In this document: positions 15,035 through 51,330 of the stretch, in pieces
Layout of the letters: every line of letters starts with the position of its first letter
Numbering within the stretch: the first letter of the stretch is position 1
Assembly (NCBI GenBank): GCA_030324005.1
Contig: JARDVH010000110.1
Coordinates: forward strand, 69,196,341-69,260,340
Origin: Negaprion brevirostris
Lineage: Eukaryota
Length of the DNA: 64,000 nt
Direction of reading: 5' to 3'
Made by a program: the position numbers and the translations under genes
The notes under the pieces: generated by a model
Databases searched by the model: none
Seen by the model: only the letters and a program-made list of their open reading frames with translations
What the model was told of the DNA's origin: nothing

Positions 15035-16612
15035 CCAGTGTTGTATCAAATACCCGCATGTTAGATATAAGACAGCAACCTGTACAGTAAAGCCCAAAAT
15101 ACTCCCATATTAGATATAAAAAAGCGACCTATACAATAAAGCATCAAATACTCACAAGTTATGCATATCACAGCTATCTGCATAGGAAAAGATCAAATGC
15201 TGTCATGTTAGGTATAACCTGTGTGTCAAAATATTAGATGCTCTCATGTTTGTTGTAGCACAGATATTTGTACACCAAAGCATCAGATAATTGCATATTA
15301 TGTATAACACAGCTATCTGTAAAGCCAAACATCAAGTACTCTCATGTTAGGTGTATCACAGCTACCTGTACAGTAAAACATGAGATACTCTCAGGTGAGG
15401 TATTAAAACAGCTACCTGTATAGTAAAAGAGCAAATACTCTCATGTTAAGCATAATATAGCCATATGTAGGGTAAAGCATAAGAGGTTGGGTATAACAAC
15501 TCGCCGTATAGGAGAACATCAAATACTCTCATGTCAGGTATATCAGACATGTTTGCTATTGCGTAACAGTTATCTGCATAGTAAAAGAGTAGGTGTTCTC
15601 ATGTTAGGTATAACACAGCTATCTGTATAATAAAATAGCAAATACTATTACTTTAGGTCTAGTTCAGCTATCTGCACAGTAAAACAGAAAGTACTTTTAT
15701 GTTAGATAAACATGAGTATAACATAACTCAGCGCAGTGGTACAGTGGTTAGCACTGCTACCTCACAGCGCTAGGGACCTTGATTCAATTCCCGGCTTAGG
15801 TTACTGAATGTGCGAAGCCTGCACGTTCTCCCCACGCCTGAGTTTCCTCCTGGTTCTCCGGCTTTGTCTGTCCAAAAGATATGCATTGGCCGTGCAAAGT
15901 TCTCCTTCAGTGTACCCAAGCAGGCACCGGAGTGTGATGACTTGGCGATTTTCACAGTAACTTCACTGCGGTCTTAATGCAAGCCTATTTGTGAGACTAA
16001 CAAATAAACTTAACAATCTTTAAAACTTTATAATTCCATGTACAGTAAAACAACAAAGAATCCAATGTTAGCAATAACGTAATTGCTTGTACAGAAAAAA
16101 ATCAATTACTTTCATGTTAGGGATAGAACAGCAATGTGTACAGTAAAGCATCCGATTCTTGCAAGCAAGGTATTACATAGTTACCTGCACAGTAAAAGAG
16201 TAAATGCTCTCTTTTCATGTGTGACATGAAAACTGTTTTACTACTTGTGTGGTAAAACATCTGATAATCGCACCTGAGGCTGAACACAGCTTCCTGTATA
16301 GTAACGCATCAAATGCTCTCATGTCAGATGAACAATCGTGAAATATATTGGGAAGAGAAGTAATTTGTATTCATGTGAAGAGAAAATGCGAAGTCTGAAA
16401 TGACTGCAGCCGAAAATGCAGCCCATTTATTCATGCTGTATTAAGATTTAGCTGAAGTGTTCTTGTCATCAGAAAGTACATTCCAGTCAAATTTCACTTT
16501 ATTTCAAATAAGTTTGTTTAAAATAGCATGAAACATCAAAAACTCCTCTGTTAGATATAACACAGCTACCTGTACAGTAAAGCAACAAGTACTCTAATGT
16601 TAGGTATAACAC
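15035..16612. repeat. Degenerate 49-bp tandem repeat array, interrupted by a SINE and other sequence
   Basis: Consensus ~CAGCTACCTGTACAGTAAAACATCAAATACTCTCATGTTAGGTATAACA; units start at 15073, 15122 and 15171. Blocks at ~15035-15720, ~16035-16330 and ~16540-16612. Confidence 0.88.
15728..16012 (+). mobile_element. tRNA-derived SINE inserted in the 49-bp array
   Basis: HE1-like head GTGGTACAGTGGTTAGCACTGCTACCTCACAGCGCTAGGGACC..TTCAATTCC; tail GATTTTCACAGTAACTTCA..AATAAAC. Confidence 0.85.
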
Positions 16613-30910: not shown

Positions 30911-31124
30911 CAAGCTGCGTCTCGCTGGATTAGGATTCCTACACGCATCTATGGATGGTTTTATAATTTTTAAGAACATTTGTCTCAAATAACGGCAGGA
31001 TGTTAAAGTAGTCCAGGTATTTTACAAACTCTAGCTCTTTTAAAATGATATTTGGAGTTTATTAAGGCGAATTGGCGAACGGAGCCGTGCTGCGCTGAAG
31101 CATTTGAAATGGTTTTCGCTGGAA

Positions 31125-33608
31125 ATGGGATATTATAAAATATATTGCTTGGGAAAATGGCAACTGTTGTGCAGTGTCTTCCCCTTCTGGGTCCTGGTAT
31201 CGGGACAGATTCGCTATTCCATCCCTGAAGAACTGCAACTGGGCGCCTTTGTTGGGAATATCGCAGACGATTTGGGTTTAGATGTGAGAGAGCTCTCGGC
31301 TCGGAATTTCAGAATTGTGCCCGGTCCCAGAAAAAGGTATTTGGATGTAAATTTAGACAATGGGGTTTTTTTTGTGAAGGAGAAAATTGACAGGGAACAG
31401 TTCTGTGGGTCGAGCCTCACTTGCTTATTGTCTACAGAAGCTGTGATCGAAAACCCTTTGAACGTCTACCGAATCGAAGTGGAGCTTCTGGATGTAAACG
31501 ACAACCCTCCCCATTTCCCAAAGAGCGAAATCCGGCTGGAAATCTCTGAGCTGGCGGCTCCGGGGGCGCGCTTCCCCCTCGAGTGCGCGCACGACCCGGA
31601 CGTTGGAGCCAACTCCCTACAAAGCTATCGGCTGCTGGGGAACCAGCACTTCGCCCTGGACATTGAGACCCGCAGTGGAGACGAGAAGCTGCCAGTGCTA
31701 GTGCTTGAAAGGCCACTGGATCGAGAGAAAGAGTCGACCCACAGGTTAGAGCTAATCGCCAAGGATGGCGGGGTCCCCCCCAGGTCCAGCACTGCGCAAA
31801 TAATAATCGTGGTGCAGGACGCCAATGACAACTCCCCCGTCTTCTCCCAGTCTGTTTACAGGGTCAGCCTGAATGAAAACGTGCCCAGGGAAACATTGGT
31901 AATCAGGCTTAATGCAACTGACTTGGATGATGGGTCTAATGGTGAGATAGAATATTCCTTTACCAGTCATACCTCCGCGACAGTGCGTGAACTATTTAGC
32001 CTGGGTTCCAAATCTGGCGAAATCAGAGTGAATGGAAATTTGGACTTTGAGGAAAACAGTGCCTTTGAGATCAATGTACAAGCAATGGATAAGGGGCCTT
32101 ATGCAGTTCCTGTCTACTGCCATATACACGTGGACGTTACTGATGCGAATGATAACTCGCCGGAGGTGATAGTGACTTCTCTGTTCAGTCCCATCCGCNN
32201 NNNNNNNNCCGCGAAGACTCCGTGCCCGGGACTGTGATAGCTCTGATCAGCACCACAGACAAAGACTCAGGGGGAAATGGTCAAGTTGATTGCCAAATCC
32301 CAAAAAACCTCCCCTTTCAATTGAATTCTCCCTTGAGGAACTATTACAAATTGCTAACCCAGCAACAACTGGACCGTGAAAACACCTCCAAGTACGACAT
32401 CACTATTCTCTGTAGTGATTCCGGATCGACTCCGCTCACTTCCAAAAAAACTGTGCAGGTGGAGATCTCAGATGTCAATGACAACGCGCCACGTTTTAAC
32501 CAGGCTGCCTACACAGCCTATGTGATGGAGNNNNNNNNNNAACGTTATCGGGGCCTCCATCTTTTCGGTGACAGCGTCTGATCCGGATTTTAACGAGAAC
32601 GCTCGAATATCTTATTCCATCCCGAGGGAGCTGAACCAGGACGAGTCGATGGCCGGCTATGTGTATATTGATTCGGAGAGTGGCATCATATTTTCTCAGA
32701 GAACTTTTGATTACGAGCAACTCAAAAACTTTCAGCTCCGGGTTCAGGCACGGGACTCTGGAGTCCCAGCACGCAGCAGTAACGTTTCGGTGGATGTCGT
32801 TATCCTTGACCAGAACGACAACGCTCCGGTGATCCTGCATCCGCTGCCCGAGTATGGGCCAGCAGTANNNNNNNNNNNGTCCCGCTTCGCAGAACCAGGC
32901 TACCTGGTCACCAAGGTGTCTGCCACCGATGCTGACTCCGGCCAGAACGCTCGTCTCACTTACCAAATGACTCAGGCCACTGACCCAGCACTTTTCACAA
33001 TTTCACCCGACACAGGCGAAATCTGGACAGTCCGCGGCGTTGGGGACAACGATGCAACGAAGCAAAGGTTAACAATCGTGGTAAAAGACAACGGGACACC
33101 ACCGCTTTCAGCATCTCTGACTATCAGTTTATCAGTGATCGATGGGGATGCACAGTTACTTTCTGATCTTAGCAGCTTGACTGAAAATCCTGGATTCGCT
33201 TCCGATTTGAGCTTTTACTTGGTGATTTCTTTAGGGATAACTTCTTGCATTTTCCTGGTGGTTTTAATCGCCCTCGCTGTGAAAGTGCACAAAAACAGGG
33301 CAGGGTTTACTGGTTACAGTTGTGGCCTGGACGCCTGTTGGTGTTGCGAATCAAGAAACTCGCTCAATGGGATTCAGAAAGCCAGTAGAAACATCCAGAT
33401 CCCTCCGAATTATGTGGAGGTATTCGGCGGGGATCCACTCTCGCAGAGTTTCCGCTACGAGACATATTCCACTTTAGAACGAGACCCCGCCTTTCCCAAC
33501 ACCTGCGGGTCGTCTGTATTGAAGTATCACGTCGAGAGTGAAAATATTAAGGGAAAATTTCCACACTCATCACCTTCTGCAAATTCTAGAAACCCTGTAA
33601 ACAGTGAG
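31125..33608 (+). CDS. Clustered protocadherin variable exon V6 (split into three ORFs only by small N-gaps)
   Basis: ORFs 31104-32237, 32222-32581 and 32568-33674 join into one Pcdh. The frame changes fall exactly at 10-N placeholders: 32199-32208 (flanked by duplicated CCGC) and 32531-32540. Donor GAG|GTGAG at 33608. Confidence 0.9.
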
Positions 33609-33997
33609 GTGAGGTATTGTTTCAAAAAGGACAAATTAGATACCTCACATTTGGTTGCACTTATATGCAAATAGGGAATTCCNNNNNNNNNNNNNNNNNN
33701 NNNNNNNNNNNNNNNNNNNNNNNNNNNNNNNNNNNNNNNNNNNNNNNNNNNNNNNNNNNNNNNNNNNNNNNNNNNNNNNNNNNNNNNNNNNNNNNNNNNN
33801 NNNNNNNNNNNNNNNNNNNNNNNNCATCATGATTGTTGAAGGACTTCCTCCCAATTGGAAAGAAATTTACAATGTCGTTTACAATATGTAACACAGAGAT
33901 ATATTGAATGATGACTAAATTCATCTGCTTAAATTACATGAGTAATTTAAAAAGCAATCTGCAAAAGATCTTCCCATCATTATTCCAATTGCTGAAT

Positions 33998-36137: not shown

Positions 36138-38591
36138 ATGGGATTTTATAACATACACTGGCTATTAAAATGGCAACTCCCGTGCTTAGTGCTCGCCTGG
36201 AATCTGGTTTCTGGACAGATTCGATATTCCATTCCCGAGGAGCTGCAGCTGGGCGCTTTTGTTGGGAATATCGCAGCCGATTTGGGTTTACATGTAAAAC
36301 AGCTCTCGAGCCGAAATTTTCGGATTGTGTCGGGTCCCAGGAAACAGTATTTCGACGTAAATTTAGACAGCGGGATTTTACTTGTCAAGGAGACTATTGA
36401 CCGAGAACAGCTCTGTGGATCAAGCCTCGGGTGCGCCCTGACTCTGGAAGCTGTGATTGACGAGCCACTCAATGTCTATCATGTCGAGGTGGAGATTCTG
36501 GATATAAACGACAACGCTCCCCATTTCCCAAAAGAACAATTCCGTTTGGAAATATCCGAGTTGGCCGTGCCCGGATTTCGCTTCCCACTGGAATCCGCCT
36601 ACGATCCGGACGTCGGCACCAACTCCTTGCAAACCTATCAGTTAGCCCCTAACCAATATTTTAATCTGGATGTACAATCTCGCAGTGAGGACGGTAAACT
36701 CCCAGTTTTAGTGATGGAGAAGCCCCTTGATAGAGAGCAGCAGCCCACACTGCAGTTACTGCTGACGGCCACTGACGGGGGCATTCCACAGAGATCTGGC
36801 ACGGCACAGGTTACCATCCACGCACTGGATGCCAACGACAACATCCCTACCTTCAGCCAGTCCCTTTACAGAGTCAGTTTGTTAGAAAATGTGCCCATCG
36901 GAACGCTGGTAATCAAAGTGAACGCTACTGACCCAGATGAAGGTCCCAACGGAGAAATTGTTTATTCCTTTGGTAGCCACGCTTCTGTTAAAGTGCGGGA
37001 ATTGTTCAGTGTGGACCCCAAAACGGGAGAGATCCGAGTTAAAGGGCTTCTGGATTTCGAAACAGCAAAGGAATTGGAGATTAGTTTGCAAGCAGTGGAT
37101 AAAGGCGCATCACCTGTGCCTGTGCATTGCGATGTGTTAGTGCAAATCGTTGATGTGAATGATAATACGCCGGAGATAACTGTGACATCTTTGTCCAGTT
37201 CAGTTCCTGAAGATGCCCTGCCTGGCACTGTGATAGCTTTAATCAGTGTGAGTGATTCAGACCTGGGGGAGAATGGAAACACTCACTGTCAGATCCCCAA
37301 CAGCCTCCCTTTCAAATTGGATTCAACGTTTAAAAATTATTACCGATTGGTCACCAAAGATTTGCTGGATCGAGAAATGGCCTCTCAGTATGGCATCACC
37401 ATTAGCTGCAGCGATGCAGGTTCGCCTGCGCTCACTTCCAACAAAACCATTCAGCTGGAGATCTCAGATGTAAACGACAACCCCCCACGTTTCTCACGGA
37501 CTTCATACACAGCCTATGTGACAGAGAACAACGCCATTGGGTCTTCGATCTCATCGGTGTCAGCTTTTGATGCAGATTTAAATCAGAACTCTAGACTGTC
37601 CTATTCTATTTTAAAGACACAAGTCGGCGATATCCCAGTAACTAATTATGTGTCTATTAATTCAAATAGTGGCGTAATATCTGCTGAGCGTTCATTTGAC
37701 TACGAGGAATTGAAGAGGTTTCATGTCCACGTTCAAGCTGCTGACGCTGGGGTCCCACAGCTTAGCAGTAATGTGTCAGTGGAAGTGATTATTCTAGATC
37801 AGAATGATAATGCCCCAGTCATCATATCCCCAATTCCGGAGTATGGTTCCACATCAACGGAGACAGTATCTAGATCGGCGGAGCCGGGTTACCTGGTGAC
37901 CAAAGTGTCAGCTACTGACGCTGATTCAGGCCCCAATGCAAGGCTTTCTTATCAACTGGCCCAGGCCACTGACCCTGGCCTTTTCACTATTTCCCCAGAC
38001 ACGGGAGAGGTCTGGACTATCCGTCGCATTGTGGACAACGATGCAGTCACGCAGCGCTTGGTTATCCTGGCAAAAGACAACGGGATCCCACCGCTAAGCG
38101 CAACAATTAGCATCATCTTATCACTGGCCGACATTAACACCGAAAGTCTTTCCGAAGTGAGTAGTCTAACAAAAGATCTCGGATTTCCTTCAGAGATAAG
38201 CCTGTACTTAGTCATAGCTTTAGGATCAATCTCCTCCATTTTTCTGGTGGTTTTGGTCATCCTCGCTGTTAAAGTCCACAGAAATAGGAACGTTTTTAAC
38301 CGTCACAGCTGCTCTCTGGACACATGCTGCTGTTTGGGATCCGCACATTCTCTGAACGGAGTACAAAAGGCCAGCGTCAACCTTCAGATCCCCCCGAATT
38401 ATGTTGAAGTTTTTGGCCGTGAGCCACCGCCTCAAAACTTCTGTTACGAGGTCTGCTCTACATTGGATAAAGGTGCAAGCACATTTCCCAAGATTGAAAG
38501 TCCAATTGCGACGGGAAACCGCAGCAGTGTGGCCAAAAGATATGTTCAGCCGTCAAATGTTGTAAATAATAGAACCAATTTATTCAACGAG
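36138..38591 (+). CDS. Clustered protocadherin variable exon V7 (last intact variable exon)
   Basis: ATG at 36138 (MGFYNIHWLLKWQ), with an in-frame upstream ATG at 36084. 818 codons. Divergent VCD (FGREPPPQNFCYEVC). Donor GAG|GTGAG at 38591. Confidence 0.96.
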
Positions 38592-45156: not shown

Positions 45157-45215
45157 GTCAAACAACCAAATGCTGACTGGCGTTTCTCACAGACTCACAG
45201 AGCTGAACTAAACAG
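45157..45215 (+). CDS. Protocadherin constant-region exon 1 (59 nt): VKQPNADWRFSQTHRAELN(S)
   Basis: Acceptor ttttctttgtag|GTC and donor AACAG|gtact. The phase 0 start matches all variable donors. The PNxDWR[FY]S motif and 59-nt length match constant exon 1 of Pcdh-alpha/gamma. Confidence 0.93.
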
Positions 45216-49566: not shown

Positions 49567-50104
49567 TTGCTTTTATGTAGAAAGCTGAGGACCTATCATA
49601 CTTTTATTCAAGAACTTGATTAATTTGCCCTGCTCCCTCCAAATTTGAGAATCTGACAACCATAAATTTTCTAGTCACTAAACTTTTGAGGTTATACAGA
49701 ATCTTGCCCCATCTTAAAAATGACAAATGCTTGCATTTATATAGTGCCTTTACAAAAGAAAACACAACCTCCAAGCTTATAAACATTCATCAGATAAGTG
49801 AGTAGAACCTTAAAGAAAGTGATAGTTTTAGGGAGCATCTTAAAGGAGGATAGAATGGATGAGAGATGAACTTTAGACAAGGATTTACCGTGTGCAAGAC
49901 AATGGAAAACTGTACCTTCAGGAAATGAGCAAGAGAGGTTGGGGAAGGGAAGAAATTTGGGGAAAATAAATCCTTGTTTTGAAAGGACAGTGGAAGAAGA
50001 ATTCATGATGCAAGTTAAAATCCTTAATTACATCTGATTTACTTATCTGTGCTTTTCACACATTCTTCAGCATGTTCACTGACTGTGTCCCTGTTGTTTC
50101 ACAG

Positions 50105-50334
50105 TACTCAGTATCTGGAGGAGGAAGGAGTGCAGCGTGATGTACAGCGTGAAGCCCAGCGAGAAGTGCAGTGCGACGTGCAGCGTGAAGTACCACGTGA
50201 CGTGCAGTGTGAGGTGTCCCGGAATATTCAGCGCGAGGTTCAACGTGATGTGCCATGCGACGTGCCGCGTGTTGTCGAGAAAGACCCTGGCGGACCAAGG
50301 AAACCAATGTCTGCGCGGCCTGCAGCCATCCCTG
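50105..50334 (+). CDS. Protocadherin constant-region exon 2 (230 nt): (S)TQYLEEEG-(VQRD/E-like)x12-VEKDPGGPRKPMSARPAAIP
   Basis: Acceptor ctgttgtttcacag|T and donor CCTG|gtcagt. Phase 2 in completes the Ser codon from exon 1 and phase 1 out matches alpha/gamma constant exon 2. GC/CpG-rich open frame within an AT-rich intron (inside ORF 50049-50423). Confidence 0.85.
50130..50285 (+). repeat. Coding 12-bp tandem repeat (~13 units, consensus GTGCAGCGTGAN)
   Basis: Units translate as VQRD VQRE AQRE VQCD VQRE VPRD VQCE VSRN IQRE VQRD VPCD VPRV VEKD. Confidence 0.9.
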
Positions 50335-50955
50335 GTCAGTGCTGGACAAATAGCAACATTCATGTTGGAGTCTACTGTTCAGACAGGTCAAAATTAACCT
50401 TTCTCAAGCATTTTCCTCTTTAGAGACAGAGCAGAGAGATATGCTGATTACCAGATTTTCCATGAGTAGACAAATGAGCAATTAGTATGCTGGACATAAC
50501 AGACTTGGAAGTCATGCTGTGCGGATATTAGCATAAACCCACAGGGTCTATTTTCATGAAATTGTTTTCTCCATCTTCTTAACAGAAATGATATAGTATT
50601 TAAAATAAGCCATTAGCATTTCTGTTAACATAAAGGAATATCATCCACTTGTACTTCAGTTCAAGATTCTCACTGCATAAAAAAAAAGTTATGTGACTTG
50701 TGAGAAGATGCCAGCAAATATAAGTTGGGAAAAATAATGAAAATTAAGAACTTCTGGTATGTGATGCACTTTGTAAAAGAATAATTTTGCAACAAACCAT
50801 TTTGATGTCAGGCCTCATAACCTGAAAGCAATTCAGGTTTGAGAAAATTCTGCATGTGGACTATGGCTGAAAGGTCCATTATCATATTAATATTACACCC
50901 ACAAAATAGACAAGGAGACTAGAATCAATGTCAACAATAATTGTAACAAAAGAGA

Positions 50956-51330
50956 TTGGCCAGAATTCTATGCTGTCATACACCACACTACCGCTGTCAG
51001 TGAGAATGGAGAATTTGGCACTCAACCAAATCTCCATTCACGGCAGTGGGACTGGAGAATAACAGCCACGGATGAGGTCAGAGAATCCCAGTCGCGGATA
51101 GTGTTGGAGAATCCCAACCACAGACATGGTCAGAGAATTTTGGCCACAGGTGTGTTCGGAGAATCCCAATCATGAGTAAGGCCAGAGAATCCCAGCCACA
51201 GGCGAGATCAGAGAATCCCAACTACGGGCATGGTCGGAGAATTCTGGCCACAGGTGTGGTCGGAGAATCCCTGCCATGGGCGTGATTGGAGAATCCCAGC
51301 CACAGGCATGGCTGGAGAATTCCGGCCAAT
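50956..51330. mobile_element. MITE-like element containing an 11x 26-bp internal tandem expansion
   Basis: TIRs ATTGGCCAGAATTCT / AGAATTCCGGCCAAT. GAGAAT recurs every 26 bp from 51055 to 51315. Confidence 0.8.

Follow-up and report, generated by a model that had tools for sequence, protein, structure and literature searches.

A charged tetrapeptide repeat in constant exon 2 of the chondrichthyan protocadherin-nu subcluster, read in Negaprion brevirostris

In mammalian Pcdh-alpha and Pcdh-gamma, variable exons are spliced onto shared constant exons, and constant exon 2 is 89 nt long. This mammalian exon 2 is not known to carry a repeat of the kind described below. The nu subcluster of Callorhinchus milii is reportedly the subject of Yu et al. 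2008; the repeat was not found described in our literature search, and that paper or its supplements may already show it. In PMC2764143 and PMC4978886, the nu subcluster is given as specific to cartilaginous fish, and the former presents alpha and gamma as different subclusters, said to be without orthologues in cartilaginous fish. According to PMC7811963, Pcdh-alpha has a WIRS motif near its end, and the role of the motif is given there for alpha. Two further systems stand close to the locus analysed here. The nu proteins of Callorhinchus milii (UniProt B0YN92, B0YN93, B0YN97, B0YN99, B0YNA1) have the same exon 1, the same type of repeat and the same terminal exon, with 11 repeat units instead of 12: relative to them, our locus has one unit fewer before and two more after a conserved Cys-then-Asn pair. 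The delta tails of bony vertebrates have the same layout, in most cases with one unit of the type V/I/L-Q-R/K-D/E in an exon-2 region of ~29 codons, and they are unexpanded.

Identity and anatomy of the exon

The window analysed was a stretch of 64,000 nucleotides from Negaprion brevirostris, and its plus strand carries a clustered protocadherin locus with variable exons at ~4.3-38.6 kb. Seven variable-exon-like stretches were found between 4.3 and 38.6 kb, some of them split or gapped. One variable exon, at 31044-33674, is seemingly divided between two frames around short N gaps and may be an assembly artefact or a pseudogene. A 49-bp tandem array also lies in this region of the window (15048-15699). 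The last variable exon of the subcluster (36141..38591, plus strand) encodes six cadherin repeats, a transmembrane segment and a variable cytoplasmic part; its start codon is a presumed one, its donor reads GAG/GTGAGA, and its domain content was taken from the Pfam matches of homologues. Constant exon 1 (45157..45215, plus strand) has 59 nt, enters in phase 0 and leaves in phase 2, and encodes a DWRFS motif. Constant exon 2 (50105..50334, plus strand) comprises 76 full codons in one open frame. It is bordered by a pyrimidine-rich AG on the 5' side and by GT on the 3' side. The splice borders and the open frame confirmed the length of 230 nt and the phases (2 in, 1 out) that had been proposed in an earlier note on this DNA.

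Homologues were collected with the exon as query. Among 191 candidates, 93 longer proteins were obtained, all of them chondrichthyan protocadherins from 15 named species, with exon identities from 96% in Mustelus down to 59% in Callorhinchus protocadherin nu. Callorhinchus nu8, 9, 13, 15 and 17 were among the 93. The last constant exon was 86% identical to that of Callorhinchus nu9, against 59% for exon 2, and it matches Pfam Cadherin_tail. A 50%-cluster search with this last exon gave seven matches, two apparently unrelated and none labelled alpha or gamma. Farther upstream on this contig, at distances of ~0.4 and 1.36 Mb, are two paralogues of the last exon, probably those of delta and mu. 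In pairwise comparison, the contig's two other constant regions showed 34-38% identity to the nu last exon. In the expected order of the locus, nu would come last, after delta, epsilon and mu. Within the protocadherin-nu subcluster of cartilaginous fish, exon 50105-50334 is the second constant exon, an orthologue of the elephant-shark nu sequences already in UniProt. Many N-terminal variants share one common tail per species; all 93 homologues have the exon, identical within each species, which bears out the earlier claim that it is common to all isoforms of the subcluster. The choice of alpha and gamma as the standard of comparison did not hold up: they are not nearest, the single ancestral unit is found in delta-type exon 2, and the known nu subcluster had been missed.

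The joining of the exons was followed in sequencing runs. Seven of the 23 listed runs were compared; X20 (share 0.07) and X21-X23 (0.00) are among those left out. The labels of the runs name related species rather than the animal sequenced here, and the runs are presumed to be RNA. Exon 1 was joined to exon 2 in the contigs of three of four runs, with 4889 nt skipped between GT..AG ends, and in the contigs of all four runs in this comparison the match ended at 50334. A contig of one run (X19) continued from exon 2 into the first 30 bases of the downstream exon, at extended coordinate 88550. The animal's own genome gave a single match to the exon, so no retrocopy was seen. Spliced contigs of related species include exon 2, as the earlier note had supposed. 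In run X3, which is labelled as the best holder's species, 10 differing sites and one indel against the window were observed over 49950-50500 (551 bases); most of these differences are common to another label, and labels or populations may be mixed.

Composition, constraint and origin of the array

Exon 2 holds twelve diverged 12-nt units (50130..50273, plus strand, 144 nt), which encode the pattern hydrophobic-Q/P-R/C-D/E. TRF reported a period of 12 with 7.3 copies and 69% matches at 50129-50216. The identity of the exon protein with itself at lag 4 was 23, compared with a shuffle mean of 6.3, and this value was reached by 0 of 100,000 shuffles. The period is far beyond chance, and the 12-unit charged tetrapeptide repeat first noticed in this shared tail exon was confirmed. 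Nine basic and ten acidic residues occur among its 48, which gives ~40% charged residues and a net charge near zero. The observed/expected ratio of CpG was 1.34 in the array and 0.20 in the upstream intron. The excess of 141 nt over the mammalian exon had been equated with the size of the array. This was roughly right; however, the array has 144 nt, an ancestral motif accounts for one or two of its units, and exon 2 also has a longer 3' flank than its delta counterpart. A PDB sequence search with the exon returned no match at E up to 10. The four Pfam matches of the exon were below cut-off, including a phage gp5 beta-helix at E=0.18, and were ascribed to chance. A caspase-site reading of the repeat (V-x-x-D) was set aside. 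Outside the exon, a non-coding 26-bp tandem array (~9.6 copies) was observed at 51055-51328, ~700 nt 3' of exon 2.

Unit number was compared in 16 sequences, one per species plus the window. Twelve units were counted in 14 of the 16, 14 in the skate Rhinoraja, where an 8-residue duplication in the array is fixed, and 11 in the chimaera Callorhinchus. Across sharks, rays and chimaera, the number is thus near-constant, at 11-14 units. None of the 66 unit pairs is identical (mean unit identity 64%), the longest exact internal match has 11 nt, and of the 135 codon pairs that encode the same residue, 67 differ by silent changes. The array is old and is not being homogenised. Since it occurs in both chimaera and elasmobranchs, it should predate their split.

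Constraint was estimated by comparing four runs, a set that includes X5, with the window. Eight variable exon sites were found, six synonymous and two non-synonymous, which corresponds to a pN/pS of ~0.11 (p=0.003; four runs of related species, with small counts); one further difference, in run X15, lies outside this count. Silent CpG sites had changed at 5 of 11 positions, compared with 2 of 31 at CpG sites where a change alters the amino acid (p=0.009, four runs). These results showed that the exon is under purifying selection, and the excess of silent over coding changes agrees with the constraint that had been anticipated; the protein databases contain solely in-frame orthologues. The two coding changes each alter a CGT codon for Arg, one to Cys and the other to His, and both occur in run X5. 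At position 3 of the units, 193 units gave Arg 122 times, Cys 51 times, His 20 times and nothing else. A drift from Arg to Cys or His at CpG codons was thereby shown. The earlier note had derived the Cys units from CpG deamination. That origin is supported by the run differences and by position 3; the note's own argument from TGC/TGT proves nothing, because no other Cys codons exist.

The origin of the array was approached through its paralogues. In a set of 64 proteins homologous to turtle protocadherin delta 1 (P0096), the exon-2 region held exactly one loose unit 45 times and two units in no case, and the strict unit pattern was present in 17; most of these delta-type homologues are labelled protocadherin-10-like, and their delta identity was inferred. 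Because most delta-type tails hold a single unit, the array has likely expanded from an ancestral motif. Judged from these sequences, one V/I-Q-R/K-D/E unit was probably duplicated in frame in the nu lineage, before the chimaera-elasmobranch split. The two upstream paralogous constant regions have candidate exons 2 of 77 and 86 nt with similar acidic starts; the candidates were found by similarity and a splice-site scan, and their mu and delta labels are tentative. The probable mu candidates, beyond the window, are constant exon 1 (L023:3912-3970, 59 nt) and constant exon 2 (L025:5607-5683, 77 nt), the latter with a similar short stretch. The probable delta candidates for exons 1 and 2 lie only ~200 nt apart (L058:5720-5772, 53 nt; L058:5972-6057, 86 nt). 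The short stretch of the candidate mu exon 2 is V-K-R-E, which presumably fits the SUMO consensus, and the candidate mu last exon is without a FITFG-type motif.

Proposed helix and spacer reading of the repeat

AlphaFold2, run with 16 rows, modelled residues 4-26 of the exon as a helix and what follows as coil (mean pLDDT 57.7, pTM 0.19). In the first five units, the predicted helix had a pLDDT of ~57-61. Units 1-5 (50130..50189, plus strand) lie mostly within this low-confidence helix and are near proline-free across species, with proline in 1 of 70 such units, compared with 14 of 14 at unit 6. Units 6-12 (50190..50273, plus strand) are proline-punctuated and mostly coil by prediction. Val and Asp are poor helix formers, and this counts against a helix. 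The predicted helix and the proline pattern together favoured an extended helix plus a flexible spacer. The helix that had been suggested earlier is weakly supported for units 1-5, by a low-confidence model and the proline pattern.

Our preferred reading is that nu exon 2 arose when one ancestral V/I-Q-R/K-D/E unit was duplicated, that its length has stayed near-constant, and that it forms a helix plus a flexible spacer. We give this reading a probability of about 0.55. Units 1-5 would be an extended helix and units 6-12 a flexible coil, according to the model, in the tail of all nu isoforms. The array lies more than 100 residues from the membrane, and the repeat would set how far the membrane-proximal motif of exon 1 lies from the NVYIPG and WIRS-like motifs at the end of the tail. 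The FITFG of the nu tail is what we take to be the WIRS match. Twenty-one columns of the exon are invariant over the 16 rows. A pure spacer would need no unit-by-unit conservation, so these columns hint at a binding partner.

Further exons of the tail were observed beyond the window. Elasmobranch models have one or two exons that are absent from the five chimaera sequences: one of 111 nt, which preserves the frame, and one of 100 nt, which shifts it (L004:6550-6660, L005:5401-5500, L012:392-606). Inclusion of the 100-nt exon shifts the last exon to a second frame, which lacks the NVYIPG and WIRS-like motifs. The second frame forms the end of 82 of the 93 database proteins, which are mostly gene models, and the WIRS-like frame that of the other 11. 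The second frame is open for ~85 residues in other elasmobranch models and contains a TGA in this genome. Alternative splicing of the predicted 100-nt exon may switch actin signalling.

Alternative readings and meaning for the subcluster

The repeat could be a docking array for LC8 (DYNLL1/2), which would dimerise or traffic nu tails, a role compatible with that of a spacer. We regard this as unlikely. Under the LC8 rules given in PMC6607443, position 0 is Gln, -1 and +1 are uncharged and of medium size, +2 is Asp, Glu or Pro, -3 is large and basic, -4 is polar, and proline is absent from the interior. Gephyrin (EDKGVQCE) and Ana2 (STTGTQCD) are among the binders listed there, and WDR78 (KNKDVQCD) is predicted; the QC anchors of gephyrin and Ana2 as LC8 binders also appear in PMC12057147. 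Such clients share with the nu tail V/I-Q-C-D/E and a basic residue at -3, which in the nu tail lie in a region that may be largely disordered. A V/I-Q-C-D/E unit that follows a Q/R-R-D/E unit fits the rules, and the window has one clean motif, the putative AQREVQCD of units 3-4 (50154..50177, plus strand). A single CpG transition would convert V-Q-R-D/E to V-Q-C-D/E, and the preceding unit would supply the polar -4 and the basic -3 residue. The nu tail could then be a self-renewing LC8 docking array, in which CpG decay makes motifs and a site is kept per lineage while its position shifts; this form, too, is unlikely.

At least one proline-free motif was present in 16 of 16 sequences, at unit 4 in galeomorph sharks, 2 in batoids, 11 in Pristiophorus and 8 in Callorhinchus, and two LC8-family genes with intact exons are present in the genome. 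Per-sequence shuffles gave 0.31-0.81; multiplied across lineages, this comes to 0.047 for four deep ones and 0.009 for eight. These p-values are weak, however: the motif was noticed post hoc, in lineages that are not independent of one another. By the rules of PMC6607443, Arg at +1, found in most units of the array, is highly unfavourable, and so are many like charges; the non-binders listed there include one tested peptide with a QC anchor. In comparison with multivalent LC8 clients such as ASCIZ, the nu tail has one or two clean motifs by sequence, amid units that mostly carry Arg at +1. Units 3-4 are conserved even where +1 is Arg. In addition, the 20 His arose by the same route as the 51 Cys, so decay alone yields Cys. 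LC8 binding requires a strand, whereas the clean motif lies in the low-confidence predicted helix, in an exon with no confident fold. A predicted complex that paired two copies of LC8 (P0144 residues 41-129, which differ by a single residue from the shark exons) with two 48-residue repeats scored 0.25 against a mark of 0.34, in a run without alignments or folded controls, and is evidence for neither side. A literature search for a link between clustered protocadherins and LC8 gave one review. An intronless LC8-family copy was also observed at L061:1495-1764 (minus strand); it has several substitutions at conserved residues, is likely a retro-pseudogene, and was passed over as a partner for the complex.

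A rather improbable reading takes the repeat for filler that is close to neutral: slippage would have produced it long ago, and selection would hold it merely in frame and soluble while it decays slowly at CpG sites. Such filler would agree with position 3, which was altered solely by CpG transitions (193 of 193 units Arg, Cys or His), and with the fixed duplication in Rhinoraja. It would also agree with the conservation of units 6-12, which in most comparisons is the lowest within the exon. Between Mustelus and Leucoraja, identity was 15/28 in units 6-12, 14/20 in units 1-5, 18/20 in exon 1 and 36/37 in the next exon; in this comparison the repeat is conserved less than either neighbour, which counts against the preferred reading of a helix plus spacer. 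Against the filler reading, silent sites change far more than coding sites, Arg is retained at hypermutable codons in 122 of 193 units, 14 of the 16 sequences agree in length, and units 1-5 are kept proline-poor.

The Cys residues might themselves be the functional part and tether or cluster the tail through S-acylation, redox chemistry or metal binding. Units 7 and 11 have Cys in all 14 twelve-unit sequences, and one Cys column is invariant, chimaera included. However, the TGY codon is a mutational sink after CpG loss, the spacing fits no Pfam family, and the distance of the array from the membrane also argues against this reading, which is very unlikely. Slightly less probable still is the earlier suggestion of a mixed-charge segment that drives condensates; the charge content and balance of the array suit it, but there are only 48 residues, without aromatics, and in many units Cys or His has replaced Arg. 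The earlier suggestion of a length-polymorphic VNTR that tunes signalling is hardly credible and was rejected, as unit number deviates in just two of 16 sequences, the units are non-identical with short exact matches, and the exon is free of indels across seven runs of related species, in contigs that drop rare alleles.

With a helix and flexible spacer as the preferred reading, the point for the family is a modest one. A coding repeat has stayed near-constant in length since the split of chimaeras and sharks in the one tail of a whole receptor subcluster, and the ancestral single unit is still visible in delta-type tails. If instead the LC8 reading were true, clustered protocadherins would be tied to a dimerising hub by motifs born by CpG decay within a repeat. 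All nu protocadherins would then have a handle for LC8-driven dimerisation or transport, of a kind unreported for clustered protocadherins in the literature searched.
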